From: a virus
Taxonomy: Duplodnaviria; Caudoviricetes
Strand: one strand, 5' to 3'
IMG/VR virus record: IMGVR_UViG_3300026863_000035
Coordinates: 1 to 32,030 of that record
Length of the DNA: 32,030 nt
Shown here: positions 751 through 19,424 of the stretch, piece after piece
Layout of the letters: every line of letters starts with the position of its first letter
How positions within the stretch are numbered: the first letter of the stretch is position 1
Made by a program: the position numbers and the translations under genes
The notes under the pieces: model-generated
Told to the model about the DNA's origin: nothing
Database searches by the model: none
What the model saw: only the letters and a program-made list of their open reading frames with translations

Positions 751-1311
751 ATGCCAAACCGGTCCGTCGCGAGCCCGGCACTATGGACGGCGATGCGCCG
801 GCTGCGCGAAGAGTATGGCGTCATCTACGCGCTGATTTCGGACGCCAGCGGCGTAAAGGCGGACACGATCCGCAGCAAGGCGCAACGCGAGGGCTGGCGC
901 TGCCCGACGGTACGCACCGCCGTGCCGGACGCCGGGCTGGACCTGCCCGAGGCGGACGATGAGGGGCACGCCGAGGCCGGCGCCGAGGCAATGGAGGCCG
1001 TCGCGCTGGAGGAGTTTCTGGGCAGGTCGGACGGACCCGCCGAGCTGGGCGCCATGCTGCATGCGCAGGTCAGGGAGCTGGTGGGAAATGCCCGCAAGGG
1101 GCGCGTCGAGAAGGGGCGCATCGATGCGCTGGCCGCGCTGATGCGCCTCGTCGAACGGGCGGAGGTGCTGGCAAAAGACGGCGCCCAGGACCAAAAAAAG
1201 AGAAGCGATGACGAACTCGCCGAAGTCCTCGAACGCATCGACGAGCGGATCGTCGAACTGGCTGAACACCACGCAGAGCGGCTGGTCGCACAACAATCTG
1301 ACGCCGGATGA
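751..1311 (+). CDS. GTA small terminase-like protein (g1)
   Basis: 186 aa; N-terminal HTH-like ...GVKADTIRSKAQREGW; GGAG Shine-Dalgarno; overlaps the large terminase. Confidence 0.7.
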   Translation: MPNRSVASPALWTAMRRLREEYGVIYALISDASGVKADTIRSKAQREGWRCPTVRTAVPDAGLDLPEADDEGHAEAGAEAMEAVALEEFLGRSDGPAELGAMLHAQVRELVGNARKGRVEKGRIDALAALMRLVERAEVLAKDGAQDQKKRSDDELAEVLERIDERIVELAEHHAERLVAQQSDAG

Positions 1312-2461
1312 GGCCGACCGCGCGCTCGCCGAATGGTTCGGCCAGGCGCATGGCGACCAGTATCCGCTGCCGCATGCGCCGCAGAACTGGCTGGTGACGG
1401 GCGGGCGCGGCGCGGGCAAGACGCGGCTCGGCGCCGAGTGGGTGAACGCGCTGGTGCGCGGCCTGCCGCCCTTTGCGCTGGACGGGCAGCGCTATGGCCG
1501 CATCGCGCTGATCGGCGAGACGCTGGCCGACGTGCGCGAGGTGATGATCGACGGCGTGTCGGGCATTGTCGCCGTGGCGCGGCAGGGGCGGCCGGAATTC
1601 GAGGCGACGCGGCGCAGGCTGGTGTGGCCGTCGGGCGCGGTGGCGCAGATGTTTTCGGCCGAAGATCCCGAAAGCCTGCGCGGGCCGCAGTTCGACGCCG
1701 CCTGGTGCGACGAGCTGGCGAAATGGAAGAACGCGCAGGCCTGCTTCGACATGCTGCAGTTCTGCATGCGCGTCGGGCCAAGGCCGATGCAGCTGATCAC
1801 CACCACGCCGCGACCGACGAAGCTGGTGAAGCGGCTCCTGACCGACGGCGTGTTTGCGGTGACCCGGCTGCGGACGCAGGCGAATGAAAGGAATCTCGCC
1901 GGCGGTTTCGTCGCCGCGCTGAAGCGGCGCTACGAGGGAACGCGGCTGGGACGGCAGGAACTGGGCGGCGAGCTGATCGAGGAGCGCGAGGACGCGCTGT
2001 GGTCGCGCGCCATGCTGGAAGCGGCGGCGCTCGACGATTGCCCGGAGCTTGGCCGCATCGTGGTGGCGGTCGACCCGCCGGCGAGCGCGAAGAAATCGTC
2101 GGACGCCTGCGGCATCGTTGCTGCCGGGCTGGATGGGGACGGCATCGTGGTGGTGCTGGCCGACGCGACGCTGAACGCCGCGCGGCCGCAGGACTGGGCG
2201 GGCGCGGCGGTCGCGCTCTACCACCGGCTGGAGGCCGACTGTCTCGTGGCCGAGGTGAACCAGGGCGGCGACATGGTGAGTGCAGTGATCCGCGCCGCCG
2301 ACGCTTCGGTGCCGGTGAAGCCCGTGCGGGCGCGGCGCGGCAAATGGATCCGCGCCGAGCCGGTGGCGATGCTCTACCAGCAGGGCAGGGTGCGTCATGC
2401 CGGCCGCTTTGCGGCACTCGAGGACGAGATGTGCGAATTTAGCAGAACCAAGGATTGTTGA
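1208..2461 (+). pseudogene. terL: GTA large terminase (g2), N-terminal part, truncated by the satellite insertion
   Basis: Walker A GGRGAGKT, LRGPQFDAAWCDE Walker B, ITTTPRP, VAVDPP, AEVNQGG. After EDEMC it reads into foreign DNA (EFSRTKDC*). Start position uncertain. Confidence 0.92.
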
Positions 2462-2816
2462 AGGAAAACAATCACATAAGGTTTACACGGAAGCCGCGAA
2501 AAAGCATGAACGGGGCCAGAACACGGCAGCCGATTGTAAAGCGGAAATCCCGCCCGATGACGGCCCGGCTGGAAACGAAACCGCCGCCCCGACTGGCATC
2601 GGAAGCGGCGGCAATACGTCAGAAAAGCACAGCAGCGCTTTCGAGGGAAACTGCTACCACAGCGGCGAGCTGCCTGCAACGCGCGCGGCCCGTTGGTACC
2701 GGGAAAATCGTGAGACTTGCCCGCGTCCGATCGTGCCGACGCTGCGCCGCATGTTCGGCCTCACGGCGCTTCAGGTGTGCCAAGCGATCCGCGAAGCGAA
2801 CGGGGGTGGCCGATGA
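2397..2816 (+). CDS. Satellite hypothetical protein (start codon not inside the element)
   Basis: Protein-like C-terminus AARWYRENRETCPRPIVPTLRRMFGLTALQVCQAIREA; stop overlaps the next ATG (ATGA); no ATG/GTG/TTG in this frame between attL and the IVPT codons. Confidence 0.45.
   Translation: MPAALRHSRTRCANLAEPRIVEGKQSHKVYTEAAKKHERGQNTAADCKAEIPPDDGPAGNETAAPTGIGSGGNTSEKHSSAFEGNCYHSGELPATRAARWYRENRETCPRPIVPTLRRMFGLTALQVCQAIREANGGGR
2423..2436 (+). repeat. attL core of the satellite
   Basis: GACGAGATGTGCGA versus GATGAAATGTGCGA at 13087-13100; identical 8-bp core ATGTGCGA at 2429-2436. Confidence 0.85.
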
Positions 2817-3487
2817 CCGCCGCCTCGTTCACCGTCTCGGACGCATTGCTGCGCAGCCTGGCGCGCAAGCCCGCGCCCGACGCCGAGATCATGGCCGGCT
2901 ACATGTCGGGCGCGATCGCCACGCGCGGGCCTTCCCTGCGCCTGCCCAAGCCGTCACGCCCGTTCGGCGGGCGCTTCACCCGGCCGCGCCCGCAACGCTC
3001 TCCCGATCGCGAGAGGTCTATCCATCGCAGGCGGACGCTCGCCGCGACGTGGCCGATGCCGCCCGTCATGGCCGGCATGCTCACCACGAGCCAAGTCGCC
3101 TATGCCCGCATCGTGTCCGACGAGGTGCACAGGACCGGCCGGTGCGAACTGACGCTCGACGAGATCGCGGCGCGCGGTGGCATGTGTCGCAAGACGGCCA
3201 AGCGGGCACAGGACCGCCTCGCCGAGCTGCAATGGGTCGCCGTCGAGGAACGGCCCGTGACGGGCCGCAAGCACCTGCCCAACGTCGTGCGCATCGTGTC
3301 GAGCGAATGGGCGACGTGGATCAAGATGGGTCCGAGGCCTCGCCGCACAGGGGGACATTCGTGTCCTACCACGGGAAACCAGTCTATTCCTTCTGCACAG
3401 CTCGCGCCCGTTGAGAGGTCGCAAGGGGCTTATGAGAGGGAGCGAGCGGGACCGCTGCGGCCACCTGGGCAGCGAGGGCGCACCTGA
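2813..3487 (+). CDS. Winged-HTH replication initiator-like protein
   Basis: GRCELTLDEIAARGGMCRKTAKRAQDRLAELQWVAVEER...PNVVRI is an HTH_36/replicase-like pattern; translationally coupled at both ends. Confidence 0.6.
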   Translation: MTAASFTVSDALLRSLARKPAPDAEIMAGYMSGAIATRGPSLRLPKPSRPFGGRFTRPRPQRSPDRERSIHRRRTLAATWPMPPVMAGMLTTSQVAYARIVSDEVHRTGRCELTLDEIAARGGMCRKTAKRAQDRLAELQWVAVEERPVTGRKHLPNVVRIVSSEWATWIKMGPRPRRTGGHSCPTTGNQSIPSAQLAPVERSQGAYERERAGPLRPPGQRGRT

Positions 3488-3819
3488 TGCCCGGCGACCC
3501 GTACTACAAGAGCCGCCATTGGCGCGAGCTGCGGGCCGCAAGGCTCCAGCTCGACCGGAACACATGCGTCGTGCCCGGTTGCGGGAAGCGCGCGACCACG
3601 GTCGACCACATCAAACGGAGGCGTGACGGCGGGCGCGACACGATCGCCAACACGCGGTCGCTGTGTGACGAGCACGACCGCGCGGTGAAAGAGCTGCCGA
3701 ACGGGAAGCGAAGGAACGGCGGCAAGCTGGTGGTGAAGGGCTGCTATGCGGACGGAAGCCCGCGCGACCCGGCGCACCCGTGGTTTACAGGCGGGCCGAG
3801 GGGGGTTCGATCATCATAG
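3487..3819 (+). CDS. HNH endonuclease (HK97 gp74-like terminase cofactor)
   Basis: YYKSRHWRELR, CVVPGC, TVDHIK, NTRSLCDEHD; directly upstream of terL. Confidence 0.88.
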   Translation: MPGDPYYKSRHWRELRAARLQLDRNTCVVPGCGKRATTVDHIKRRRDGGRDTIANTRSLCDEHDRAVKELPNGKRRNGGKLVVKGCYADGSPRDPAHPWFTGGPRGVRSS

Positions 3820-3885
3820 TTCGGCTGGGGGCGGGACCGTTGGGGGCAGTCGGACACACTTACTTTCACAAAGGATTTCAATGAG

Positions 3886-5535
3886 ATGGGAAAGCGAGGC
3901 ATAGGGGCGAAGCCGGTCAAGGCGGTTGCCGAGATCGCGAAAAAGCGGCGCAAGAGCAAGCCGTGGGAAAAGCGCGGCCTGTCTCGCGCCGGCCGCGTCA
4001 TCGCGTTCATAGAGACGCTGAAAATCACGTCGGGCATGCACGCCGGCAAGCCGTTCATCCTGCGCCCGTGGCAGCGGACCATCATCGAGGCGATCTACGA
4101 GACGGACGCGGCCGGCAAGCGGATCAAGCGGCAGGTGCTCCTCACGATCCCCCGAAAAAACGGCAAGACCCAGCTCGCCGCCGCCCTGGCGCTGGCGCAC
4201 CTGGTCGGCCCGGAAGCCGAACAGCGCGGGCAAGTCTATTCCGCCGCCGCCGACCGGAAGCAGGCCGCGCTCATCCTGCGCGAGCTGGTCGCGTTCGTCC
4301 GCGCCGACGCCGAGCTGGCCGACCGGATCATCATCCGCGAGCACAGCAAGACCCTGGAGGATGTCGTCACCGGCTCGACCTATGAGGCGCTGTCGTCGGA
4401 CGCGAAGAAGGCGCACGGCCTCAACGTGTCGTTCGCCGTGCTCGACGAGCTGGCGCAATGGCCGAAGCGCGACCTATACGACGCGCTCACCACGGGCGGG
4501 GCGGCCCGCGCCGAGCCGCTGTTCGTGACGATCTCGACGCAAAGCCACGACAAAAATTCCGTCATGTCGGAGTTGGTCCAATATGGGCAGCGTGTACTCG
4601 ACGGCGCGATCGTGGACGAGACGTTCCTGCCGGTGATCTTCGCCGCGCCCGACGATGCCGACCCGTGGTCGGAGGCGACCTGGTTCGCCTGCAACCCGGC
4701 ACTCGGCGACTTCCGCTCGCTCGACGAAATGCGATCGGCCGCCGAACAGGCGAAGTCGCTGCCGGCGCGCGAACCGTCGTTCCGTCTGCTCTACCTGAAC
4801 CAGCCTGTCGACGCGACGGCGCGGTTCCTCAATGCCCGCGACTGGACCGCGTGCAAGGCGTCGAGCGACGGCGGGCTGTTCGGGCAGATGACCCTTTCGA
4901 AACAGCGCTGCATCCTTGGCCTTGACCTGTCGTCGACCACGGACTTGACGGCGCTCGCCGCATGGTTCCCCGAGACGCGCGACCTTATGGCGTGGTTCTG
5001 GATGCCGGCCGACAATCTGGAGGAAGCCGAGCGCCGCGACCATGTTCCCTATCGCCTCTGGCAGCGGCAGGGGCATATCGAAGCCACGCCGGGCCGCGCG
5101 ATCGACAAGGCGTTCGTCGTGCACCGCATGGCCGAGCTGACGAAGGAGTTCAACGTCCAGTTCTGCGCCGCCGACCGCTGGCGGCTCGACGAAGTGCGCC
5201 GGATCATGGCCGAGCAAGGCGTCAAGATCGAGATGCAGGAGTTCGGGCAGGGCTGGCGGGACATGGGGCCGGCGATCGACGCGATCGAGACGGCCGTGCT
5301 GCGCCGCGAGCTGCGCCACCCTGGGCACCCGGTGCTCGACATGTGCGTGTCGAACGCCGTGACGGTTTCCGACCCGACCGGCGCGCGCAAGCTGGTAAAG
5401 GAACGGAACACGGGCCGCATCGACGGCCTCGTGGCGGCGACGATGGCGATCGGCGCGGCCGTGAAAGTCGCGCCGAAAAAGCCGAGCGTCTATCAAGGGC
5501 GCGGGCTGATCTCGCTGGTGAGGAAATCGGCTTAG
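3886..5535 (+). CDS. terL: Satellite large terminase (Terminase_1 family, cos type)
   Basis: LRPWQ, IPRKNGKT Walker A, VLDELA Walker B, ISTQ, GLDLSSTTDLTA, RIDGLVA. Confidence 0.93.
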   Translation: MGKRGIGAKPVKAVAEIAKKRRKSKPWEKRGLSRAGRVIAFIETLKITSGMHAGKPFILRPWQRTIIEAIYETDAAGKRIKRQVLLTIPRKNGKTQLAAALALAHLVGPEAEQRGQVYSAAADRKQAALILRELVAFVRADAELADRIIIREHSKTLEDVVTGSTYEALSSDAKKAHGLNVSFAVLDELAQWPKRDLYDALTTGGAARAEPLFVTISTQSHDKNSVMSELVQYGQRVLDGAIVDETFLPVIFAAPDDADPWSEATWFACNPALGDFRSLDEMRSAAEQAKSLPAREPSFRLLYLNQPVDATARFLNARDWTACKASSDGGLFGQMTLSKQRCILGLDLSSTTDLTALAAWFPETRDLMAWFWMPADNLEEAERRDHVPYRLWQRQGHIEATPGRAIDKAFVVHRMAELTKEFNVQFCAADRWRLDEVRRIMAEQGVKIEMQEFGQGWRDMGPAIDAIETAVLRRELRHPGHPVLDMCVSNAVTVSDPTGARKLVKERNTGRIDGLVAATMAIGAAVKVAPKKPSVYQGRGLISLVRKSA

Positions 5536-5819
5536 CTCGGCGGATCGCTGTCGAAGCGTTTCAGAATGCCGACAACATCGTCATCATTCGCGGGGGACCG
5601 GCGTGCAAGTCGCACGCCGGCACCGCCGCCGTTCTCGGCAATGAAGATCACGCCGGCCGTCTCCAGCGCAGCGCGGATAGCGTCCACCGTCCGCTCACGC
5701 AATTCCTCGCCGCGCTCAAAGCGCGTGATCGTGTTCGTCGAGACCTTGGCTTGCTCGGCGAGTTCTCTAACGCCGAGTTCAAGAGCCGCGCGGGCCATCC
5801 TGCATTGTGCTGGTGTCAA
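5532..5819 (-). CDS. XRE-family HTH transcriptional regulator
   Basis: AQCRMARAALELGVRELAEQAKVSTNTITRFERG...AGVIFIAENGGGAGVRL; TTG start. Confidence 0.9.
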   Translation of the reverse strand: MTPAQCRMARAALELGVRELAEQAKVSTNTITRFERGEELRERTVDAIRAALETAGVIFIAENGGGAGVRLARRSPANDDDVVGILKRFDSDPPS

Positions 5820-5822
5820 TTC

Positions 5823-5904
5823 GCATCACCGTAGCGAAATCGCCTTGACGTGGCGATTAAGGTTGAGTTAACGCTACACTGTAGCAAAATCGCTGCAATG
5901 TAGC
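5823..5904. promoter_or_regulatory. Three 13-bp operator-like palindromes
   Basis: GCATCACCGTAGC (5823-5835), GCTACACTGTAGC (5873-5885, perfect palindrome), GCTGCAATGTAGC (5892-5904). Confidence 0.7.
5857..5872 (+). promoter_or_regulatory. CtrA-binding consensus TTAA-N7-TTAAC
   Basis: TTAA GGTTGAG TTAAC, exact match, in the divergent intergenic region. Confidence 0.7.
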
Positions 5905-5917
5905 AATGAGGTTGACC

Positions 5918-6385
5918 ATGCCGAACACCGCTGTTCGCGCAGCCGGCGAAGCTATGCCCGCTGCGAAGAACCTGACCACGATCCTGCGGCCTGCCGAGCT
6001 GCCGGAACGCTACGCCATGATCTGCGACGGCGACTGCATGCTGCCGGAGATCGACCACGGAACGAAGCTGATCTTCAACCGCGACACGCCGGCCGTGCCG
6101 GGCGACATGGTGGCGCTGTTCTGGTCACCGGAGCATGTGAAGGCCGGCGAGCATCAGGTTGTCGTCAAACGCCTCGTGGTCGGTCCCGCGCCTTGGACGC
6201 AATGGGGGAAGCCGACGCGCGGCGACGTGCAGACGATGGTCATCGTCGAGATGCTCAATCCGCGCCGCCAGTTCTTCATTCCGACCGAAAAGCTGCTCGG
6301 CATGCACAAATGCGAGGGTCCGGTGCCGGCCGGCACGACGACGCGGAAGGTCACCAAACGCGAAATGACGCGGGCCGCACGCTGA
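5918..6385 (+). CDS. Stand-alone S24/LexA-peptidase-like protein
   Basis: YAMICDGDCMLPEIDHG...GDMVALF...VVKRL matches the S24 pattern with GDSM changed to GDCM; GAGG before ATG 5918 (alternative start 5906). Confidence 0.7.
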   Translation: MPNTAVRAAGEAMPAAKNLTTILRPAELPERYAMICDGDCMLPEIDHGTKLIFNRDTPAVPGDMVALFWSPEHVKAGEHQVVVKRLVVGPAPWTQWGKPTRGDVQTMVIVEMLNPRRQFFIPTEKLLGMHKCEGPVPAGTTTRKVTKREMTRAAR

Positions 6386-6448
6386 TTATCCACAGGCGGA
6401 AATGTGGGGCAGCCCACACGTCAATTGACGCGCGCTTCTTTTCGTGGG

Positions 6449-7078
6449 ATGCCTCACGACATGAGCGCGCGTTTTTCATTCTCCATGAACCGTTTCGGCC
6501 CCACGCGGGCGGAAGAAATCAGCGGCGTGAGCCGGACCACGCAACGCGACTGGCGGCGCGAGGGCCATCTGCCGACTTCCGAGGGAATGGCCCGCTACGA
6601 TCTTTTCGACCTGTGCGAATTGTGGGTTCTCAAGTCGTGCGCGGACGTTGGCCTTGGTCCGAAGCGGGCAAAGGTGTTTTCGCGCTCGGCCGCGTTGCAT
6701 ATGGCGTGGCACTGCCTGCGGCTAATCGGCTCCTACGAGGGCGATCACCTGACCGCGCCGGCTTCGAAGCACAACAAGACCTTCGACCTGGGCGGGCAGA
6801 CCTTCGACACGCCGGCCTGGGGCCGGAAGGCGCGGTGGCTCGCCGATCACATCATGTACGACAAAGACGATCCGAACCCGTGCAGCGAGTTCTACGGCAT
6901 CTGGCCCGATGGCGAGGCGATGCCGATGGACAATTTCCATTCGATGTTCATGCCGGCCGACCGCGCCGTCGCGAAGCGTGGCGCGGTGATCGTGCTGCCC
7001 CTCAATCTCGCGGCAAACTGGCTTGTCGAGGCGGCGAACGAACCGCTCGTGCAGGTCACGTTCGAAAAAGGGGGATGA
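6449..7078 (+). CDS. MerR-like HTH DNA-binding protein
   Basis: FGPTRAEEISGVSRTTQRDWRREGHL...ARYDLFDL; start uncertain (6449/6461/6485). Confidence 0.65.
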   Translation: MPHDMSARFSFSMNRFGPTRAEEISGVSRTTQRDWRREGHLPTSEGMARYDLFDLCELWVLKSCADVGLGPKRAKVFSRSAALHMAWHCLRLIGSYEGDHLTAPASKHNKTFDLGGQTFDTPAWGRKARWLADHIMYDKDDPNPCSEFYGIWPDGEAMPMDNFHSMFMPADRAVAKRGAVIVLPLNLAANWLVEAANEPLVQVTFEKGG

Positions 7079-7138
7079 TTTCCACAGGAATTTTATCCTC
7101 ACCCTGCGAGGTGCGCGCATCATGCGTATCGAGTTTTC

Positions 7139-7226
7139 CCGTCGTGAGACGGCACTTCCCAGCACCGAACGTCGTGAGACGCCCGGCCCGATGGACCCTT
7201 AACCCCGCCGTGAGGCGGCACTTCCC
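7139..7226 (+). repeat. Three GTGA-tetraloop hairpins in the capsid leader
   Basis: CCGTC-GTGA-GACGG+CACTTCCC (7139-7160), CGTC-GTGA-GACG (7170-7181), CCGCC-GTGA-GGCGG+CACTTCCC (7205-7226). Confidence 0.75.
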
Positions 7227-7242
7227 AACGAAGGAGACTGAC

Positions 7243-8544
7243 ATGAAAATTCACGAATTGCAGGAAGCCCGCACGACGGCCGTCGTCAACATGCGGGCCT
7301 TGGCCGACCTGGCCGACACCGAAAAGCGCGACCTGACGGCCGACGAAGAAACCAAGTTCGGCACGTTCAAGTCGACCATCGCCGATCTCGACAAGAAGAT
7401 CAGCCGGGCGCAGACGCTCGCCGATGCCGAGCGCAGTTCGCCTGCCATCGTGCACGGCCGTCTCGGCGACGGCGCATTCGAGGAACGCGCCCGCGACTTT
7501 TCCATCGTCAAGTGCATCCGCTCGACGCTGCCGGCCAACATGGGCGGCGCGGTGGACATCGGCTTCGAGCGCGAGATCGGCACGGAAGTCGCGCGGCGCA
7601 CCGGCCGGGCCTATGAAGGCTTCGCCGTTCCGGATGAAATCTTCCTGACCGAGCGCCGCACGCTGCTGGCCGGCTCCAGCGCCGCCGATCTCATTCCCAA
7701 CGTGCACCGCACCGACCTGTTCATCAACCGGCTGCGCAACCGTCTCGTGGTCGGTCGGCTCGGCGCAACCTATCTCGACGGTCTTGTCGGCACGGTCGAC
7801 ATTCCGCGCCAGACGGGCAGCTCGACGGCCCAGTGGGTGGCCGAAGACGGCTCGCTCACCGAAACCGACGCAACGTTCGACGACGTGACGTTCGCGCCGA
7901 AAACGGTCGGCGCGATGACCAGCTACAGCCGGCGCACGATCATCAACGCATCGCCCGCGATCGAGAACATCGTGCGCGCCGATCTTGCCGCCGTAATCGC
8001 TTCCGCGATCGACGAAAAGGCGCTTGTTGGCACGGGCGCGAGCAATACCCCGGTCGGCATCACCAACACGGCCGGCGTGACGGAGATCGCGTTGACGGCT
8101 GCGCCGACCTGGGCGCAGGTGCTCCAGTTCATCGCGGCGATCGACGCCAGCAACGCGCTGGAAGGGTCTCTTGGCTGGGCCGGCAATCCGCACGTCGTGG
8201 CACTCATGCGCGCGGCCGTGAAGGTCACGTCCGACGCGGGCGCGGGCTTCATCATGGACGCGGCAAACGAGCTGGCCGGCTATCCACTGGTCAACACGAT
8301 GGCGCTGCCCGGCGTTGCGCCGGCTGCTACGCCGGAAGTGGCGTCGGCCCTGATCTTTGGCGACTGGTCGCAGCTCATGGTCGGCTCGTGGACCGGCATC
8401 GATATTCTCGCCAATCCTTATGAGACGACGGCCTATGCCAAGGGCCGCATTCTCGTGCGGGCGATGAAGGACGTGGACGTGCAGGTGCGCCAGCCGAAGG
8501 CGTTCGCGTTCACCGATACCATCGTCACCGGCACCGATGCATAG
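7243..8544 (+). CDS. Satellite major capsid protein (HK97 fold, coiled-coil delta domain)
   Basis: AAGGAG Shine-Dalgarno, MKIHELQE..., IPRQTG, AQWVAE, GDWSQL, ILANPY, VRQPKAF; 433 aa. Confidence 0.92.
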   Translation: MKIHELQEARTTAVVNMRALADLADTEKRDLTADEETKFGTFKSTIADLDKKISRAQTLADAERSSPAIVHGRLGDGAFEERARDFSIVKCIRSTLPANMGGAVDIGFEREIGTEVARRTGRAYEGFAVPDEIFLTERRTLLAGSSAADLIPNVHRTDLFINRLRNRLVVGRLGATYLDGLVGTVDIPRQTGSSTAQWVAEDGSLTETDATFDDVTFAPKTVGAMTSYSRRTIINASPAIENIVRADLAAVIASAIDEKALVGTGASNTPVGITNTAGVTEIALTAAPTWAQVLQFIAAIDASNALEGSLGWAGNPHVVALMRAAVKVTSDAGAGFIMDAANELAGYPLVNTMALPGVAPAATPEVASALIFGDWSQLMVGSWTGIDILANPYETTAYAKGRILVRAMKDVDVQVRQPKAFAFTDTIVTGTDA

Positions 8545-8556
8545 GGGGACATTGCC

Positions 8557-9111
8557 TTGACCCTCGAACGCCGGGTCGCTGTTGAGCTGAGGGCCGGGGG
8601 AGACAAGAAGTCCCCCCGGCTCATCGGCCATGCGGCCGTCTTCAACTCACCGTCGCAAGATTTGGGCGGCTTCACCGAGATCGTGCTGCCGGGTGCGTTC
8701 AAGCGCACGCTGGCGTCCGACCGCGACCCGCTGGCGCTCGTGCAGCATTTGCCGGCGCTCGTGCTTGGCCGGCGCTCGGCGGGCACGCTGCGCCTGCAAG
8801 AGGACGGGCGCGGCCTGGCATTCGAGATCGACGTGCCGGACACCAGCGCCGCCCGCGACCTTCTCGTGAGCGTCGAGCGCGGCGACGTGCGCGGCGCGAG
8901 CTTCGCGTTCTCGGTGCCCAAAGGCGGGGACCGCTGGCAGGTTCGCGGCGACCAGGTGGTGCGCGAGCTGGCCGACGTCGACCTGCACGAAGTCACGATC
9001 ACGGCGCAGCCGGCCTATCTCGACACGTCCGTCGCCCGCCGCTCCTACGAGCTGCAAATCCGCAACGCGCCGCGCCTCCGGGCGCTTCGCCGCTTTCTGG
9101 AGACGGTGTGA
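8557..9111 (+). CDS. Satellite HK97-family prohead protease
   Basis: GHAAVFNSPSQDLGGFTEIVLPGAF, VERGDVRGASFAF, LHEVTITAQPAY. Confidence 0.93.
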   Translation: MTLERRVAVELRAGGDKKSPRLIGHAAVFNSPSQDLGGFTEIVLPGAFKRTLASDRDPLALVQHLPALVLGRRSAGTLRLQEDGRGLAFEIDVPDTSAARDLLVSVERGDVRGASFAFSVPKGGDRWQVRGDQVVRELADVDLHEVTITAQPAYLDTSVARRSYELQIRNAPRLRALRRFLETV

Positions 9112-10343
9112 TGGAAGCCGCCACGATCTCGACCGAAAAGCGGTCGACGCCGACGACATGGGACTTGCTGCGCACCGGGGCCGACTATGGCACCGATGCC
9201 GGCGTTCCCGTGTCCCCCTATCTCGCCGAGAACCTGTCCGTAGTCTTCTCGTGCGTCCAGGTGATCGCCGAGACGGTCGGCATGTTGCCGTTGCTGGTCT
9301 ATCGCAAGATCGGCGACGGCGACCGTTCGCAGGATCCTGCGCACCCGGTCGCACAGATCTTCGGCGGCGATGCCAACGACCGGCAGACGGCAAGCGAGTT
9401 CATCGAAATGATGACCGCGCATTGCCTGTTGCGCGGCAACGCCTATGCCGAGATCGTGCGCGACGGCCGCGGTGCGCCCGTCCAGCTCATCCCCTACCAT
9501 CCCGACCATGTGAGCGTCGTGCGGCTCACCCGCACCGATCGCTACGCCTATGACGTGAGCCGGCCGGAAGGCGGCACCAGGCGCTTGCTGCCGGAAGAGA
9601 TGTTGCACCTTCGCGACCGTTCCGACGACGGCGTGGTCGGCAAGTCGCGCCTGGCGCGTGCGCGCGAGACGTTCGGCAGCGCCATCGCGACCGAACGCTA
9701 TGCGGCGTCGACCTTCAAGAACGGCGCATCCATGTCCGGCATTCTGTCGCACCCGGAAGCGATCGGCGAAGAAGCGGCCGACCGGCTGCAACGCGACTTC
9801 AAGCAGACCTATTCCGGCGCCGACCGTGCCGGCGCCGTCGCCGTGCTCGAGGAAGGCTTGAAGTGGCAACAGGTGAGCGTGTCGCCCGACGACGCGCAGA
9901 TGCTGGAAAGCCGCAAGTTCTCGACGATGGCGCTGGCGCGCATCTTCCGCGTGCCGCCGCCCGTGATCGGCGATTTCGAGGGCGGCAACTATTCGTCGAT
10001 CTCAGAAGTCGGCCGCTGGTTCCACTCGCACACCATCATGCCCTGGCTGGCGCGTTGGGAACGGCTGATCGAACACAGTCTGTTTTCGTCCATGACGCGG
10101 CGCTCGCTGGAGGTCGAATTTGACTGCGATCTCCTCCTACGCGGCGACATGCTGACCCGGTTCCAAGCCTACCGCATCGCCCGCGAGATCGGCGTCTACA
10201 ACGCCAACGAACTGCGCCGCTTCGAAAAGCAGAACCGTCGCACCGACCCGGCCGGCGACGAATATTTCGCGCCCGCCAACATGCAGCAGGAACAGACGGC
10301 CCGGCCTGTCGCCGATCGGAATGGAGGCGACAATGCCGAATAG
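9108..10343 (+). CDS. Satellite HK97-family portal protein
   Basis: VFSCVQVIAETVGMLP, LLRGNAY, VLEEGLKW, ARIFRVPP, NELRRFE. Confidence 0.93.
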   Translation: MMEAATISTEKRSTPTTWDLLRTGADYGTDAGVPVSPYLAENLSVVFSCVQVIAETVGMLPLLVYRKIGDGDRSQDPAHPVAQIFGGDANDRQTASEFIEMMTAHCLLRGNAYAEIVRDGRGAPVQLIPYHPDHVSVVRLTRTDRYAYDVSRPEGGTRRLLPEEMLHLRDRSDDGVVGKSRLARARETFGSAIATERYAASTFKNGASMSGILSHPEAIGEEAADRLQRDFKQTYSGADRAGAVAVLEEGLKWQQVSVSPDDAQMLESRKFSTMALARIFRVPPPVIGDFEGGNYSSISEVGRWFHSHTIMPWLARWERLIEHSLFSSMTRRSLEVEFDCDLLLRGDMLTRFQAYRIAREIGVYNANELRRFEKQNRRTDPAGDEYFAPANMQQEQTARPVADRNGGDNAE

Positions 10344-10932
10344 CCTTCTCTCCGTCACCACGGCCGCGACCGCCTTCAACATCGTCGACCTTGGCGTCGT
10401 GCGCGCCGCGCTCGGCATCGTCGACAACAGCGATGACGCGGCGCTGACCGGCCATCTCAATCGCGCGTCCGACGTGATCGCCCGCCAATGCAAGCGGACC
10501 TTCGCGCTGGAAACCGTCGAGGAACAGTTCCGGCTCGACCGCTGGCGCGAAGAGCTGATCCTGTCGCGCTATCCCGTCGTCGCGGTCGCGTCGATCGTCG
10601 AGGCGGGCTTGACGGTCGCGCCGGCCGACTATGAGGCCGACAAGGCCAAGGGCATCCTGTCGCGGCTCCACCAGGACAAGCCGTGCTGGTGGCCGGCGCA
10701 CAAGATCGTCGTCACCTACAGCGCCGGATACGATCTCCCGAACGCCGCGCCGGAAGCACTGCAACAGGCCTGCATTCAGCTCGTGAAGTCCTACTACATG
10801 GCGGCCGACCGCGACCCGATGGTGCGGTCGGAAAGCCTCGATGACGTGTCGGCCGCGTCCTACTTCGGGACCGGCGGGCACCTGCCGCCCGATGTGTCGG
10901 CGCTCCTGAAACAATTCCGCAAGCTCAAGTGA
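10333..10932 (+). CDS. Satellite head-tail connector (gp6-like)
   Basis: GGAGG then ATG 10333; LSRYPVVAV, VTYSAGY, PEALQQAC, ALLKQFR. Confidence 0.75.
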   Translation: MPNSLLSVTTAATAFNIVDLGVVRAALGIVDNSDDAALTGHLNRASDVIARQCKRTFALETVEEQFRLDRWREELILSRYPVVAVASIVEAGLTVAPADYEADKAKGILSRLHQDKPCWWPAHKIVVTYSAGYDLPNAAPEALQQACIQLVKSYYMAADRDPMVRSESLDDVSAASYFGTGGHLPPDVSALLKQFRKLK

Positions 10933-10941
10933 GGTGACGCC

Positions 10942-11352
10942 GTGCTCAATCCCGGTTCCTACACCCTGTTGTCGCGCCAGCTCACGACCGCCGTTGCCGG
11001 CGAGGCGCAGACCGCCGTCGACAAGCTCGCCGGCATCCTCGCCGCGACCCTGCAGTGCGAGTTCGCCTATGGCAGCGGCGGCACGAGCTGCAAGGTCTAT
11101 GCGCAGGTGTCGCTCGACAACGGCCTGTCCTGGGTGGACGTGGCGTGCTTCGCCTTCACCACGGCGAGCGCCGTCAAGGTGGTGAACCTCTCGGCGCAGA
11201 CGCCGGTCACGACGGCCGTCACGCCGGCACAGGCGAGCCTCACCGACAACACCGTGGTCGACGGCATCCTTGGTGCCGTCATGCGCGCCGTCGTGGTGTC
11301 GACCGGCACCTACGCCAACACGCAAGTCCGGCTGAGGCTCGACGCGAAATGA
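10942..11352 (+). CDS. Satellite hypothetical beta-rich virion protein
   Basis: 136 aa, T/A/V-rich, contains SLDNGLSW; GAGGT Shine-Dalgarno; lies between the connector genes. Confidence 0.6.
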   Translation: MLNPGSYTLLSRQLTTAVAGEAQTAVDKLAGILAATLQCEFAYGSGGTSCKVYAQVSLDNGLSWVDVACFAFTTASAVKVVNLSAQTPVTTAVTPAQASLTDNTVVDGILGAVMRAVVVSTGTYANTQVRLRLDAK

Positions 11353-11735
11353 GAAACCCGCACGTCGCCCGTCTGGACAGGCAAATTCGGCTCCATGGCG
11401 AGCCGGTCTTGCTCACGCGCCAGTTGGCCGGCGTGCGGCGTCATGTGCTCAACACGCGCGGCATCGTGAAGACCTTCGCGGCGGAACAGCTCATCGGGTC
11501 GATCACACAGACGAATTATCTGGTGATCCTGTCGCCGACCGATCTCCGCAACAAGGGCTTTCCCGGCGCGGTGCCGGAAGCGATCCCCAGCGGCACCGTG
11601 CCGCCTGCCGACCCGAACCTGCCGAACACGGGAGACGCGCTTGTGATCCGGGGCACGCAAAAGGCGATCGGGCAAGTCTCGGCGATCTATGACGGCGGCG
11701 AGATCGTGCGCATCGAAATCAAGGTGCTGGGATGA
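11349..11735 (+). CDS. Satellite head-closure/head-tail adaptor-like protein
   Basis: Coupled ATGA start, MRNPHVARLDRQIRLHGEPVLL...TGDALVIRG...VRIEIKVLG; call rests on size and position. Confidence 0.55.
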   Translation: MRNPHVARLDRQIRLHGEPVLLTRQLAGVRRHVLNTRGIVKTFAAEQLIGSITQTNYLVILSPTDLRNKGFPGAVPEAIPSGTVPPADPNLPNTGDALVIRGTQKAIGQVSAIYDGGEIVRIEIKVLG

Positions 11736-11992
11736 TGCGCGACCACGGCCCGCGTTCCTATCTGTCGTGCGCCTCGCTGGCGCACGAGCTGGATATGTCG
11801 GAGACGACTATTCACGAGATGGTCCGTCGTGGTGTGCTGCCGAGGCCGGTCAAGCTGTCATCCGGATGCGTCCGGTGGTGCTGGGCCGACGTGCAACGTG
11901 CGCTCGGCTCGCTGTCCGCCGAATACGCGAATGCCGCCGCTGCGGCCGACCCGTTCCTTGCGGGGGCACGCAATGCCACGTCAACGCAATAG
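11732..11992 (+). CDS. AlpA-family regulator/excisionase
   Basis: LAHELDMSETTIHEMVRRGVLPRPVKLSSGCVRW; immediately upstream of the integrase. Confidence 0.85.
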   Translation: MMRDHGPRSYLSCASLAHELDMSETTIHEMVRRGVLPRPVKLSSGCVRWCWADVQRALGSLSAEYANAAAAADPFLAGARNATSTQ

Positions 11993-13058
11993 AGCCGCCG
12001 TCAATCTACCCAAGGGCGTGCACCGTGTCGTCTCACGCGGTCGCGAATATTTCTATTTTCAGCCCGGCCGGGGCACGCCGCACGCCGGGCCACGCATCCC
12101 ATTGCCGAACGATCCTCACGCGCCTGAGTTCTGGAATGCGATCCGGCAGGCGCAGGGCCTTGTCGGCGCGGTGCCGGTCGACACGTTCGGCGCGGTGCTC
12201 GACGGCTATCTGGAGTTCATCAAATCGTCCGGCGCGCTCACGGCCGGCACGATTGACCAATACGACCGGGCGCTGCGCATCGGCCGGAAGGCTTGGGGCA
12301 ATCTGCCGGCGAAGGGTCTGCGCCCTGTGCATGTGCAAGCCGTCATGGACGGCCTGGCCGGCACCACGGGCAAGGCGAACAACTTCCTGAGCGCCATGCG
12401 GGCACTGTCGACGTGGGCGCGCGTCCGCGACCATATCGAGCACAGCTTGACCGAGGGCGTGAAGCCCTATGCGAAGGACACGGGGCACAAGCCTTGGACG
12501 CCGGAACAGATCGAGGCGGCGCTGTCAAAGCTGACTGGCGTGCTTCGTCGTGGCGTGGCGCTCTACCTGTGGACCGGGATGCGGGGCAGCGATGCCGTCC
12601 GGCTCGGCTGGACCGATATCGACGAAGGCGGGTTCTCCTACCGATCGCAAAAGACGGGCCGCGATGTCTGGTGCCCGATCGTCCCGGAACTTGCGGCCGA
12701 AATGGCCACCTGGGAAAAGCGGCCGGGACCGTTCCTCTATCACGACGGCGGAAGGGCAGACGGCCGGCGCTACTCTCGCAAGAAATTCTCTGAGCACTTC
12801 GCCGAGGCGCGGGACAAGGTGCCCGAGCTGGCCGGCGTCACGCTGCACGGGCTGCGCTGCACGGCCGTCATCCGCCTGCGCCGCGCCGGCCTCTCGACGG
12901 CGCAGATCGGCGATATCGTCGGCATGTCCCTTCCGATGATCGAACGCTACTGCCGGTTCGCCGATCGCAAGGCCAGCGGCATGGCCGCGCTGTTCACGTT
13001 GAAGGAACGGGCGAAGAACGAAACTGTAAAACACGGCAAAACCGTAAAGCATAAATAG
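11973..13058 (+). CDS. int: Tyrosine recombinase/integrase
   Basis: TGMRGSD (R), SQKTG (K), LHGLR (HxxR), IERY (Y); ends about 35 bp before attR. Confidence 0.93.
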   Translation: MPRQRNRAAVNLPKGVHRVVSRGREYFYFQPGRGTPHAGPRIPLPNDPHAPEFWNAIRQAQGLVGAVPVDTFGAVLDGYLEFIKSSGALTAGTIDQYDRALRIGRKAWGNLPAKGLRPVHVQAVMDGLAGTTGKANNFLSAMRALSTWARVRDHIEHSLTEGVKPYAKDTGHKPWTPEQIEAALSKLTGVLRRGVALYLWTGMRGSDAVRLGWTDIDEGGFSYRSQKTGRDVWCPIVPELAAEMATWEKRPGPFLYHDGGRADGRRYSRKKFSEHFAEARDKVPELAGVTLHGLRCTAVIRLRRAGLSTAQIGDIVGMSLPMIERYCRFADRKASGMAALFTLKERAKNETVKHGKTVKHK

Positions 13059-13086
13059 AGCAAAATCAGGAGGTTAGAGGTCGCCA

Positions 13087-13100
13087 GATGAAATGTGCGA
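13087..13100 (+). repeat. attR core of the satellite
   Basis: ATGTGCGA at 13093-13100; IHF-like WATCAR-N4-TTR at 13064-13076. Confidence 0.85.
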
Positions 13101-13218
13101 TTTCGGCGCCGACGGTCTCGCCAATGGCCGCTCGCCCGACCGCGTCGATGCGCTGGTCTGGGCCGTGACCGAGCTGATGCGCGGGGCAGGCGCGGGGCCG
13201 AGGGTGCGGGGGATGTGA
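13093..13218 (+). pseudogene. terL: GTA large terminase, displaced C-terminal part
   Basis: Hand translation: MCDFGADGLANGRSPDRVDALVWAVTELMRGAGAGPRVRGM*, the typical GTA TerL ending; joins the upstream part in frame at the core. Confidence 0.92.
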
Positions 13219-13520: not shown

Positions 13521-15362
13521 ATGGCATGGACATGGCCCTGGCGCGCGGGCGCCGGGAACGAGCGTTTACGGCCCGAGCACAAGGGGCTGGCGGGCGGTTT
13601 CGTCGCTTTCCACCTCCAGAGCGACGCAGCGTGGACGCGGCGCGATTTTGCGACGCTTTCGCGCGAGGGGTTCATGCGCAACCCCATCGTGCACCGCACG
13701 GTGCGGCTGATTTCCGAGACGGCGGCGGCCATTCCGTGGCTGGTCTTCGACGGGGCAGAAGAGATCACCGAGCATCCACTGCTGGACCTCTTGGAGCGGC
13801 CCAATGCCGGCCAGGCGGGCGGGGCTTTTCTCGAGGCCGCCTATGGCAATCTGCTGATTTCCGGCAATGCCTATGTCGAGCTGGTCGAGGCCGGGCCGAG
13901 CTTGCGCGAACTGCATCTCCTGCGCCCCGACCGGGTGACGGTGGCGAGCGATGCGCGGGGCTGGCCGGTGGCGCTGGAATACCGCAGCGGGTCTGAGCGG
14001 CGCATGCTGCCGACATCGGGCGCGCGGCCGGCGGCGGGCACCGCGCTGCACCTCAAGCTCTATCACCCGCTCGACGACCATTATGGCTTTCCGCCGCTGG
14101 AAGCAGCGTCGATGGCGCTCGACACGCACAATGCGGCGGGCCGCTGGAACAAGGCGCTGCTCGACAATTCGGCGAGGCCCTCGGGCGCGCTGGTCTATGC
14201 GCCCAAGGAGGGCGGCAATCTCTCCGACGAGCAGTTCGCCCGGCTGAAGGAGGAGCTGGAGAACGGCTATACGGGCGCCGCGCGCGCCGGACGGCCGCTT
14301 CTGCTGGAAGGCGGGCTCGACTGGAAGGCGATGGGCCTGACGCCCAAGGACATGGACTTCATCGAGGCCAAGAATGCGGCGAGCCGCGACATCGCGCTCG
14401 CTTTCGGCGTGCCACCGATGCTGCTCGGCATTCCGGGCGACAACACTTTTGCCAACTACCAGGAGGCCAACCGCGCCTTCTACCGCATGACCGTGCTGCC
14501 GCTGGTGGCGCGCACCGCCAAGGAGTTTTCGGCCTGGCTGGCGCCGCTCTACAGGCCGGGGCTAAAACTGTGGTACGACGTCGACCAGGTCGACGGGCTG
14601 GCGACCGAGCGCGAGGCGGTGTGGGCCCGCGTCGGCGCGGCGAGCTTTCTCAGCGATGACGAGAAGCGCGCGGCGGTGGGGTATGGGGTGAGGGAGGGCT
14701 TCGACGCCAAGGCTGGCTATCGGCCGGATCAGCCGCGCATGCCGCGCGGAAGCGAGAACGGCGGCCAATGGATGGCGGACGGGAGCGCGCCGGTCATTCG
14801 CGTCCAGTCCGGCCCCCGCCGTACCGGAACCGGTCCGCCACGACGCATCGCGGGACGCTCGGTCGACATTTCACCTGCGCAGGCTACCCGATTGGAGCTG
14901 AGCCAGGCGCAGATGCAGGCTGCGGTCACGCGAGTGAGAGAATTGCAGCCGCGATGGAAACCGACCCCCAGTGCATATGAGACGGTTGAAGGTCAGATCG
15001 CCGCGAACGAAGCAGCAACGCGGGAAGCGCTGAATCGGCTTTTCGTTCTGCAACGGGAAGGGCTGGGGCCCGGTCCATTCGCCGGGGAGTCACAGCCCGC
15101 GCGCGGATCGGGCCGCCGCTGGACGACCGAGGAAATTCGGGAGAATAATCGGATCGGCAAGACGTTTGGCTGCCATACGTGCGGAACTCGGGATCCCGGA
15201 CTAGGCAACGGAAATTTCATACTCGATCATCAGCGCCCCAACGCTCTGAACTCGGAGGGTCAAGCGCAGCGCATATTTCCTCAATGCGCGACATGCAGCC
15301 GGCGGCAAGGGGGAAAAATCAGAGCGCTGATCTATAGAGGGTACCATGATTCAGACAATTAA
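13521..15362 (+). CDS. GTA portal protein (g3) fused to a C-terminal HNH toxin-like domain
   Basis: Portal core (GFMRNPIVHR, GRPLLLEGGLDWK, IALAFGVPPMLLGIPGDNT, EKRAAVGYG) ends about aa 389. Then YRPDQPRMPRGSENGGQW, GCHTCG, LDHQ, CATC. Confidence 0.88.
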   Translation: MAWTWPWRAGAGNERLRPEHKGLAGGFVAFHLQSDAAWTRRDFATLSREGFMRNPIVHRTVRLISETAAAIPWLVFDGAEEITEHPLLDLLERPNAGQAGGAFLEAAYGNLLISGNAYVELVEAGPSLRELHLLRPDRVTVASDARGWPVALEYRSGSERRMLPTSGARPAAGTALHLKLYHPLDDHYGFPPLEAASMALDTHNAAGRWNKALLDNSARPSGALVYAPKEGGNLSDEQFARLKEELENGYTGAARAGRPLLLEGGLDWKAMGLTPKDMDFIEAKNAASRDIALAFGVPPMLLGIPGDNTFANYQEANRAFYRMTVLPLVARTAKEFSAWLAPLYRPGLKLWYDVDQVDGLATEREAVWARVGAASFLSDDEKRAAVGYGVREGFDAKAGYRPDQPRMPRGSENGGQWMADGSAPVIRVQSGPRRTGTGPPRRIAGRSVDISPAQATRLELSQAQMQAAVTRVRELQPRWKPTPSAYETVEGQIAANEAATREALNRLFVLQREGLGPGPFAGESQPARGSGRRWTTEEIRENNRIGKTFGCHTCGTRDPGLGNGNFILDHQRPNALNSEGQAQRIFPQCATCSRRQGGKIRALIYRGYHDSDN

Positions 15363-17336: not shown

Positions 17337-18026
17337 ATGAGCGCGGAAAAACGCATGGGCTGCGAGCGCAAATTCGTCGACATGGTGCTGGGCGAGGTCG
17401 AGCCGGACGGCAGTTTTGCCGGCTATGCCAGCCTGTTTGGCCGTGTCGATCTCGGCAAGGATCTGGTCGAGCGCGGCGCTTTCGCCCGCTCGCTGAAGGA
17501 GCGCGGCACGGGCGGGATCCGCATGCTCTACCAGCACGATCCGGCGCAGCCGATCGGCACCTGGACCGAAATCCGCGAGGACACGCGCGGCCTTTTCGTC
17601 CGCGGCCGGCTGGCCAGGGACGTGGCGCGCGGCCGGGAAGTGCTGTCGCTGATGCGCCAGGGCGCGCTCGACGGGCTGTCGATCGGCTTTCGCACGGTCA
17701 AGGCGCGCAGCGACGCTCCGACAGGCGTGCGCCACATCCTGGAGGCGGATCTTTGGGAGATTTCCGTCGTGACCTTCCCGATGCTGCCTGGCGCCCGCGT
17801 CGAGACGGTGAAGGGCAGGCGGCAGCCCGCGCTGCCGACCATGGTGGCCATCGAACGCGCTCTGGTCAAGGGCACGGGCCTGACGGGCGACGAGGCGCGA
17901 GGCGTCGCCGCCGGCGGCGACCCCATGCTCACGCGATGGAAGATGGGCGGCGACCCGACCGCCAGGCTGGCGGCAAAAATCCGCCAGGCGACACGCATCA
18001 TCAAGCAGAAGAGGACCACACCATGA
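17337..18026 (+). CDS. GTA prohead protease (g4)
   Basis: FAGYASLFG, MLYQHDP, LDGLSIGF, LWEISVVTFPM; AAGGAGG Shine-Dalgarno. Confidence 0.93.
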   Translation: MSAEKRMGCERKFVDMVLGEVEPDGSFAGYASLFGRVDLGKDLVERGAFARSLKERGTGGIRMLYQHDPAQPIGTWTEIREDTRGLFVRGRLARDVARGREVLSLMRQGALDGLSIGFRTVKARSDAPTGVRHILEADLWEISVVTFPMLPGARVETVKGRRQPALPTMVAIERALVKGTGLTGDEARGVAAGGDPMLTRWKMGGDPTARLAAKIRQATRIIKQKRTTP

Positions 18027-19279
18027 CTGTACTGGACGGACAGACCGGGCTCGAGACCAAGGCGGCTGGCGACGGCGCAGAGCTTGCCGACGCCTTTGGC
18101 GATTTCATGCACACATTCGAGGCGTTTCGCGAGGCCAATGACGAGAAGCTGGCAGCACTCGAACGGCGCGCCGGTGCCGACGTCGTGACGGCAGAGAAGG
18201 TCGACCGCATCTCGCGCGGGCTCGACGAGCAGAAGCGGGCGCTCGACCAGCTGTCGCGGAAGCGGGCCCGCCCGGCGCTCGGCCAGGGACTGGCGGGCCG
18301 CGAGACGTCGGAGCACAAGAGCGCCTTCGACGCCTATCTCCGCAGCGGCGAGGACCGCGCGCTGCGTGTGCTCGACACCAAGGCGATGTCCTACGGCTCC
18401 GGGCCGGATGGCGGCTACCTCGTGCCGCCGGAGGTCGAGACGGAAATCGGCCGGCGCCTGTCGGTGCTGTCGCCGATCCGCTCCATCGCCTCGGTGCGGC
18501 AGGTGTCGTCGGCCGTGCTGAAGAAGCCGTTCTCGATCTCCGGTCCGGCCGTTGGCTGGGTCGCCGAAACCGCGTCGCGGCCGCAGACGGCGTCGAGCAC
18601 GCTGGCAGAGCTGCAGTTTCCGACCATGGAGCTCTACGCCATGCCGGCGGCGACGCCGACCCTGCTGGAGGACGCGGTGGTCGATCTCGACCAGTGGATT
18701 TCCGCAGAAGTCGAGACGGCCTTCGCCGAGCAGGAGGGCACCGCCTTCGTGACCGGCGACGGCACCAACAAGCCGAAGGGTTTCCTGGGTTACACCAATG
18801 TCGCGGAGGCGAGCTGGAGCTGGGGCAATATCGGCTACATCGCGACCGGCGTGGCCGGCGCGCTGCCGGCGAGCGACCCGTCCGACATACTGATCGATAC
18901 GGTCTATGCGCTGAAGGCGGGCTATCGCCAGAACGCCTCCTTCGTGATGAACCGCAAGACCCAGGCCTCGATCCGCAAGCTGAAGGACGCCGACGGCAAC
19001 TATCTCTGGCAGCCGCCGGCCGGACCCGGCCAGCGCGCCATGCTGATGGGCTTTCCCCTGGTCGAGGCCGAGGACATGCCGGATGCGGCGACGAATGCCA
19101 CGCCGATCGCCTTCGGCGATTTTTCGCGCGGCTATCTCGTCGTCGACCGCACCGGCGTCAAGGTGCTGCGCGATCCGTATTCCGCAAAGCCCTACGTGCT
19201 GTTCTACACGACCAAGCGCGTCGGCGGCGGGGTGCAGGACTTTGATGCGATCAAGCTGCTGAAGTACGGCGTTTCGTAA
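18023..19279 (+). CDS. GTA major capsid protein (g5)
   Basis: DGGYLVP, ELYAMPAAT, GTNKPKGFL, LRDPYSAKPYVLFYTTKRVGGGV. Confidence 0.96.
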   Translation: MTVLDGQTGLETKAAGDGAELADAFGDFMHTFEAFREANDEKLAALERRAGADVVTAEKVDRISRGLDEQKRALDQLSRKRARPALGQGLAGRETSEHKSAFDAYLRSGEDRALRVLDTKAMSYGSGPDGGYLVPPEVETEIGRRLSVLSPIRSIASVRQVSSAVLKKPFSISGPAVGWVAETASRPQTASSTLAELQFPTMELYAMPAATPTLLEDAVVDLDQWISAEVETAFAEQEGTAFVTGDGTNKPKGFLGYTNVAEASWSWGNIGYIATGVAGALPASDPSDILIDTVYALKAGYRQNASFVMNRKTQASIRKLKDADGNYLWQPPAGPGQRAMLMGFPLVEAEDMPDAATNATPIAFGDFSRGYLVVDRTGVKVLRDPYSAKPYVLFYTTKRVGGGVQDFDAIKLLKYGVS

Positions 19280-19286
19280 GCGCTGC

Positions 19287-19424
19287 GGCGTCATTCCGGA
19301 ATCGGCCTTGAGCGAAGCGAGAGGACGATCTCCGGGACCCATTCCGTTGCATTGGCCGAGTTGAGGAATGGGTCCCGGATATTCGCGGTTCGCTGCGCTC
19401 GCCTGCGAATTCCGGGATGACGCC
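19287..19424. repeat. RIME/RPE-like palindromic element, copy 2 (inverted relative to copy 1)
   Basis: GGCGTCATTCCGGAAT...ATTCCGGGATGACGCC; internal CCGGGACCCATTCC/GGAATGGGTCCCGG stem. Confidence 0.78.

Follow-up and report, generated by a model that had tools for sequence, protein, structure and literature searches.

A capsid-forming, tail-less mobile element interrupts the large terminase gene (terL) of a gene transfer agent (GTA) in IMG/VR virus record IMGVR_UViG_3300026863_000035 (Caudoviricetes). The window analysed here is a 32,030-nt stretch of that record, and all coordinates are positions in it. The attachment hotspot in GTA terL is real, and we found no description of it in the literature; the junction is more than chance, because the same one is present in 36 of 71 related integrase loci. 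Relatives and complete prophages occupy it too in many Rhizobiales, which makes a shared landing site likely. We think it probable that the element is a head-encoding island resembling the phage-inducible chromosomal islands that form capsids (cf-PICIs), that its tails and lysis likely come from an ordinary tailed phage, and that the GTA gene likely serves mainly as a conserved landing site.

Results

The element occupies 2437-13100 on the plus strand (10,664 bp, 15 open reading frames, ORFs). This extent follows from two plus-strand copies of an 8-bp core, ATGTGCGA, one at 2429-2436 (attL, where relatives show the same junction) and its repeat at 13093-13100 (attR), and the core is flanked by an imperfect inverted repeat, GAAAT...ATTTC. 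GTA terL is interrupted within its EMC(D/E)F codons. At the left junction the gene reads ...EDEMC, continues for 8 codons into the element and stops; at the right junction it resumes, with an SPDRxDAxVW motif on the detached piece. The 5' part (1295..2436, plus strand, start codon not fixed) matches PF03237 and positions 2-132 of the 155-position PF17289 profile, and the detached 3' part of about 38 codons (13101..13218, plus strand) matches positions 574-606 of phrog_979. The motif is kept in 21 of 21 intact terL genes. The detached residues probably include a catalytic aspartate, as expected from RNase H-type terminase nucleases; PDB sequence searches did not align this nuclease end of terL. 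The GC content of the element is 0.658, against 0.713 for GTA terL. An earlier model-made interpretation of the letters alone, here the sequence-only reading, had placed a 10.7-kb capsid-forming element without tail or lysis genes at 2437-13100 and had it splitting GTA terL; the cores and family matches confirm the former, and the junctions within the EMC(D/E)F codons the latter.

Contigs from four sequencing runs, two of them possibly the source, showed no attP or attB joint over 1200-13210, and depth was flat; such contigs drop rare forms. A viral contig (L076:6694-6790) carries the att core with no terL on either side, as expected for an excised phage (attP). A promoter scan of 300-14000 returned no promoters, and a terminator scan of the same interval found 6 terminators against 9.3 expected by chance, a result neutral on read-through.

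The genes are ordered rep-HNH-terL-regulators-capsid-neck-alpA-int, as in relatives, and lie on the plus strand unless stated otherwise. A small ORF whose start is not fixed (2508..2816; phrog_24797, E=5e-5; homologues in L031-L033 and L035) precedes a putative replication initiator with a helix-turn-helix (HTH) motif (2813..3487). For this protein, labelled HTH-Rep in the sequence-only reading, the only match is to phrog_15967, a family of unknown function (E=5e-41), and its relatives show weak matches to replication-initiation O-like profiles. It is followed by an HNH endonuclease, a likely terminase cofactor (3487..3819; PF01844, phrog_589), and by a spacer (3790..3875) in which a G run, an ACCG box and ACTTA are kept by eye in 14 relatives; the spacer may act as a cos site. 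The element's own TerL (3886..5535) is of HK97 type (phrog_9, E=3e-141; PF03354, PF20441) and has a basic N-terminal tail. No separate small terminase gene (terS) was found among the 15 ORFs, and the gap between the HNH gene and terL is 66 bp. The first 40 residues of TerL have no profile match, hence none for a terS-like origin, and by eye the tail resembles the start of one TerS only. TerL starts with an M-x-x-R-G-x-G-A-x-P tail (3886-4005) that 14 relatives conserve, and no terS gene precedes it; the tail is possibly the remnant of a terS-terL fusion.

The regulatory genes comprise a divergent XRE-like regulator on the minus strand (5532..5819; phrog_2439, E=5e-5), an S24-like protein (5906..6385; PF00717, E=0.002, below cut-off) and a MerR-like HTH protein labelled by inspection, with no family match (6461..7078). 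The major capsid protein (7243..8544; TIGR01554, phrog_617), prohead protease (8557..9111; TIGR01543, PF04586) and portal (9111..10343; TIGR01537, PF04860) all score above the HK97 NCBIfam cut-offs. The neck genes encode a long-form head-tail adaptor (10333..10932; phrog_442, E=1.5e-35), ORF X (10942..11352; homologues in L132, L134 and L138), which has no assignment and whose single-sequence fold (pLDDT 42.7) is not usable, and protein Y (11349..11735), by fold matches a Phage_attach-like head-closure (stopper) protein. The element ends with an AlpA/excisionase-like gene (11732..11992; phrog_66, E=7e-8) and a tyrosine integrase (11970..13058; PF00589, phrog_1) that the tree places in a GTA-terL-targeting clade. 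No tail, holin or endolysin family match was obtained among the 15 ORFs. Pfam, phrog and NCBIfam matches thus bear out the integrase, AlpA, HNH, TerL and capsid-protease-portal genes named in the sequence-only reading; of the connectors it had named, the adaptor and the stopper Y stand, while ORF X remains without assignment.

Recurrence of the site was assessed in 71 integrase loci, a set that excludes the window's copy, 5 duplicates and 18 distant rows (L066-L073, L083-L092) and includes L128, L129 and L133. GTA terL holds 36 of them, 23 in the window's orientation and 13 inverted; a further 2 show the core only, 7 lie at the transfer-messenger RNA (tmRNA) gene, 7 are cut off and the remaining 19 lie elsewhere. 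All loci whose integrase is at least 75% identical to the window's (13 of 13) are at GTA terL. A quick tree of 70 integrases recovers a 23-row clade (99*) that includes the window, and all 23 rows are at GTA terL in one orientation. The sequence-only reading had proposed looking for integrase homologues at these codons, and that is where this clade recurs, the crossovers all falling within EMC(D/E)F or ELC(D/E)F. Rows at the GTA site come from eight named Hyphomicrobiales families: Phyllobacteriaceae, Rhizobiaceae, Alloboseaceae, Methylocystaceae, Nitrobacteraceae, Methylobacteriaceae, Xanthobacteraceae and Tepidamorphaceae. A sister integrase clade targets the tmRNA gene (ARAGORN: tmRNA*; L012, L015, L020, L029, L128, L129, L133, L219-L221), and several of its head-forming elements have an adaptor and no recognised stopper.

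Occupancy is low. In a sample of 401 genomes from the order, 303 of which have a GTA-type terL, the five strong integrase matches were the centre genome, two at GTA terL and two at tmRNA. A family-level sample gave 8 matches in 400 genomes, with three new ones at tmRNA (one genome not scored), and in a class-level sample the integrase was found only in the centre genome (1/401). Among 50,697 phage records no integrase match was found at E<=1e-20.

Eleven elements in the window's orientation have both ends on one contig, and they measure 9.9-18.3 kb. Four (G001-G004) are head-forming like the window's; among the other seven, six have a tape measure gene, four of these also a capsid gene, and one additionally tube and terminator genes. 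The scanned ORFs of all 11 gave no baseplate or lysis family match. Inverted elements at the same codons in G017, G018 and G023 are far larger (59.5, 64.6 and 76.2 kb in all) and carry their own TerL and portal. Among the 63 of 303 called ORFs that were scanned in these three, G017 and G018 have sheath and baseplate proteins, G023 has ejection and fibre proteins, and an endolysin is encoded in G017 and G023. On their gene content, these three are complete prophages with no need of GTA tails.

Several other small elements were noted. L110-L115 and L082 (10.7-18.3 kb, at the GTA terL site) have a tape measure gene, some of them also capsid, tube or portal genes and L082 additionally a baseplate hub, and they may be further satellite types or remnants. 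L112, L178, L180 and L129 are small elements with head and neck genes in scrambled order and no baseplate or lysis match; they fall in one TerL clade and occupy several sites. L112, L178 and L180 have their own terminator, and L112 and L178 also tube and tape measure genes. L166 and L172 were considered as prophages and rejected, being small elements with their own terminator. The GTA clusters of two carrier hosts, L155 (G005) and L161 (G027), have lost portal-to-capsid or capsid-to-g15 segments.

The head module also occurs away from the GTA. A scan with the element's TerL returned 20 loci, and among relatives at least 71% identical with a readable site, four are at GTA terL (L003, L004, L007, L008) and five at tRNA or tmRNA genes. 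TerL proteins 81-83% identical to the window's are found at tRNA-Gly (L132, L134, L136), tRNA-Leu (L142) and tmRNA (L133), in elements whose integrases are at most 55% identical to the window's. In a quick TerL tree of 33 rows, GTA-site elements form three separate lineages, and tRNA- or tmRNA-site elements are interspersed in each; the sister of L008 (GTA site) is L142 (tRNA), and L020 (tmRNA) is nested among GTA-site heads. This mixture implies that integrase-att modules have been exchanged among similar heads, and by these comparisons the head module appears not to be tied to the GTA.

In the available text of 10.1101/2025.02.11.637232, the adaptor and connector of cf-PICIs decide which tail is used. 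The modelled structure of protein Y (pLDDT 80) gave 36 matches at E<=0.001 to viral stopper and connector proteins. In the Atlas, Phage_attach was the one structural match with a name. Foldseek against PDB gave no match at E<=0.001; its top rows were neck proteins, the GTA chain 6tba_3A ranking seventh. The GTA g7 profile matched no ORF of the element, Y included, and the element's adaptor reached only 22 bits against the GTA g6 profile. Y is thus, on its predicted fold, a head-closure protein and not of the GTA g7 type. It is shared by L132, L134 and L138, off the GTA site, and by L009, on it. Its sole match among the 50,697 phage records is in EBPR siphovirus 3 (30%, E=2e-4), where the Y-like gene is followed by a phrog_179 terminator, GTA g8 being phrog_176; this is a single weak data point. 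A complex prediction for two copies of Y with GTA g8 scored 0.00, which is no evidence either way.

The flanking genes form an RcGTA-like cluster, and all those listed are on the plus strand. We take the ORF at 751..1311 to be GTA g1, a putative small terminase, from its position upstream of terL only; it has no family match. Beyond the element, a GTA portal with a 214-residue C-terminal extension (13521..15362; TIGR01537; extension phrog_960 HNH, E=0.004) is followed by the protease, capsid and g6-g14 genes (17337..24620), comprising neck, terminator (20618-21025), tube, short tape measure, distal tail protein (Dit), hub and peptidase. The 5' part of the g15 megatron gene lies at 24642..28451 (NF048004, 1645.9 bits, cut-off 800). 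Megatron, Dit, hub, peptidase and tube follow RcGTA order (NF048004, TIGR02217, TIGR02219, PF06199), and the tape measure scores below its cut-off. The closest relatives of the GTA proteins are in Chelativorans and Mesorhizobium (capsid 71-72%, tube 80-81%), and the host is therefore probably a member of the Phyllobacteriaceae.

Both terL and g15 are split in this GTA. The sequence-only reading had described an altered C-terminus of g15; the alteration is real and is due to a second insertion of about 2,275 bp (28452..30726, no strand assigned, GC 0.578, ends approximate), the true last 30 codons lying at 30727..30819 (53% identical to the end of g15 in G001, E=1e-4). We found no terminal repeat bounding this insertion. 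It contains minus-strand ORFs, one with a weak match to the serine-integrase family phrog_95 (E=0.001) and another matching phrog_21015. A holin-like small membrane protein follows g15 (30888..31097; phrog_34682, E=8e-4), and several relatives have one in the same position.

Other features of the window were noted. The stretch 14718-16773 comprises the portal extension, two paralogous small ORFs (15346-15711, 15761-16147) and a Tox-MPTase3 ORF (PF15639), and it resembles a toxin-immunity cassette of the polymorphic kind joined to the GTA portal; among 13 related portal ORFs compared, only that of L156 was extended. Between GTA terL and portal, 7-nt tandem arrays of GAGTAGT (13218-13291) and CACTACT (13365-13484) form a long inverted repeat, and a related record, L001, has an array shorter by 14 bases. 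Related palindromic repeats of about 40-64 nt at 333-398 (before g1) and 19310-19428 (after the GTA capsid gene) are probably host extragenic repeats. The end of the window (31575-32030) holds a HicB/HicA-like pair (phrog_3448; phrog_353, 'toxin').

Discussion

A working model for the element can be proposed as follows. The tyrosine integrase would recombine within the 8-bp core, and the inverted repeat around the core can explain use in both orientations. Excision would join the integrase end to the rep-HNH-terL end, so that only in the circular form would rep-HNH-terL come to lie behind the rightward operon of the element. HNH and TerL would then cut at the cos-like spacer before terL and fill small HK97-type heads, the adaptor and the stopper Y would set which tails fit, and an ordinary tailed phage would supply tails and lysis. 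While the element is integrated, GTA TerL would be made without its last ~38 residues, so that GTA packaging is likely off until excision restores the gene.

Several observations weigh against this model. No helper phage was identified, and the comparison was made without the host genome. No terS was found and the replication gene is weakly assigned, which leaves packaging inferred. A stopper of phrog_25, the family of GTA g7, is present in nine of 11 GTA-site head-formers, and six tmRNA- or tRNA-site relatives have no recognised stopper. In three of five hosts checked (G001, G003, G429) no phrog_176 terminator was found outside the GTA, and in other elements phrog_25 stoppers adjoin phrog_176 terminators. 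The choice of site is not explained by conservation alone, since the DNA of the DEMCDF window ranks only 53rd in conservation among 467 windows in 21 intact terL genes.

The sequence-only reading had suggested the GTA as a possible helper: element heads would dock on GTA tails and leave with GTA-timed lysis, the competing GTA terminase having been removed. We consider this improbable overall, though likelier for relatives with gp16-type stoppers. It gains from the fidelity of the 23-row clade to the site, from the small size of all 11 same-orientation elements and the absence of baseplate and lysis matches from their scanned ORFs, and from the hosts G001-G004, in which g6-g15 are open and full length. 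The stopper and terminator families just described also favour it; in Chelativorans intermedius and Bosea vaviloviae, no terminator of the GTA g8 family was found other than g8 itself. In the stopper tree GTA g7 forms its own clade on a branch of 1.92, attached next to the L031-type stoppers, and the bit scores of the L002, L031, L034 and L165 stoppers to GTA g7 and to other stoppers are close. Against this, the relatives' phrog_25 stoppers are 24-34% identical to GTA g7 and 35-48% identical to those of other elements, and the same stopper type is present in the tRNA-site element L142. These heads are also found at sites other than the GTA, at tRNA-Gly, tRNA-Leu and tmRNA, and prophages with their own tails use the site. 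For the window's element in particular, Y belongs to a different stopper type, and the break in g15 falls inside the part that in RcGTA binds the fibres (residues 985-1304, in the available text of PMC7296036). A resident helper is not needed if, as the available text of 10.1101/2025.02.11.637232 describes, cf-PICI heads can take tails from other lysates. Broken GTA head genes alongside kept tail genes were looked for in carrier hosts and not seen. Co-orientation with the GTA operon had been offered as a sign of read-through transcription. About three quarters of the coding DNA in the G017, G018 and G023 prophages is co-oriented with the GTA too, and GTA clusters lie on the leading strand (PMC9836097, available text); co-orientation is therefore no sign of read-through dependence. 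The GTA-satellite interpretation is thus not supported for the window's element and is a minority possibility, with a small share of our confidence, for its relatives. A guild of small GTA parasites at terL, which would disable the terminase on entering and in which gp16-type head-formers take whole GTA tails and tape-measure carriers take baseplates, is likewise unlikely. The caveat that accompanied the claim, that GTA terL may simply be a conserved integration site, fits best.

Selection for the site itself is about as unlikely. Splitting terL might benefit the element by stopping the packaging of random host DNA, or as a reversible switch, with tails still coming from a phage. The terL end is rebuilt in none of 25 attL rows, unlike the targets of tRNA-site prophages, which are rebuilt (PMC12429752, available text); the lost piece holds the motif kept in every intact terL; several element types, in either orientation, have converged on a single site; and the identical cores would permit precise restoration. 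The convergence is explained as well by a single integrase lineage gaining its specificity once, and the window's GTA has its second disruption in g15, so excision would not return a whole tail gene set. That the element is a decayed prophage which lost tail and lysis genes after integration is very unlikely: L110-L115 and L082 do keep scattered tail genes (tape measure, tube), no terS was found and full prophages use the site, but elements with other integrases at tRNA and tmRNA sites, as well as G001-G004, L003, L004 and L008, have the same compact 10-11-kb layout, and the window's copy has 15 open ORFs and both att cores.

The preferred reading, a cf-PICI-like island, can be set beside known systems. 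Temperate phages with a protein-coding attB offer a parallel in integration: G017, G018 and G023 have sister integrases 57-58% identical to the element's, the same codons and the same alpA-int pair, and differ in being 60-76 kb long with their own tail genes and an integrase facing the other way. In active lysogeny, for example in the Listeria comK prophage, insertion splits a host gene that precise excision would restore; in the present case the target is a GTA packaging gene, and there is no evidence of regulated excision.

The cf-PICIs EcCIEDL933 and KpCIDSM30104, as described in the available text of PMC10085698 and 10.1101/2025.02.11.637232, share with the element the 10-18 kb size class, the lack of tail and lysis genes, an integrase, an AlpA-like regulator, HK97-type capsid, protease and portal, adaptor, connector, HNH and TerL, and neck genes that vary between otherwise similar elements. 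The element differs from them in having no separate terS and no recognised primase, in placing HNH-terL before the capsid gene and the integrase last (in cf-PICIs the integrase-regulator-primase half comes first), in its alphaproteobacterial host ('Alphaproteobacteria' and 'Rhizobi-' are absent from the main text of PMC10085698), and in an att site inside GTA terL that is not rebuilt. The published cf-PICI model, in the same main text, admits elements with 9-10 of 11 components. The element has most of the components listed in PMC10085698; as terS and the canonical order are missing and the primase is weakly supported, we use 'cf-PICI-like'.

The flanks agree with the RcGTA-like Hyphomicrobiales cluster in g1-g15 order, megatron, Dit, short tape measure and leading-strand-type co-orientation, and depart from it in the split terL and g15 and in a portal with a nuclease-like extension (PMC7296036, PMC9836097, available text). 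No description of GTA satellites or of integration in GTA terL was found in the titles and abstract openings covered, subscription papers and supplements lying outside that scope, and none of GTA-terL integration in the available parts of PMC8682789, PMC12429752, PMC9618062, PMC13669383 and PMC7947584. SatelliteFinder tables may list such elements.

Conclusions

In Chelativorans intermedius LMG 28482, Bosea vaviloviae SD260 and Pararhizobium mangrovi BGMRC 6574 such an element lies within an otherwise open GTA tail gene set, which makes satellite use of GTA tails directly testable; a guild of GTA parasites, if it existed, would comprise the first GTA satellites. The case also warns that, where phage genes flank a split terL, the region can be mistaken for one prophage. 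The element and its relatives add alphaproteobacterial, terS-less examples to the cf-PICI-like elements. An integrase lineage settled on the GTA packaging gene in eight families makes GTA clusters a recurring target of mobile elements, and would provide a concrete, reversible route of GTA silencing in Rhizobiales.

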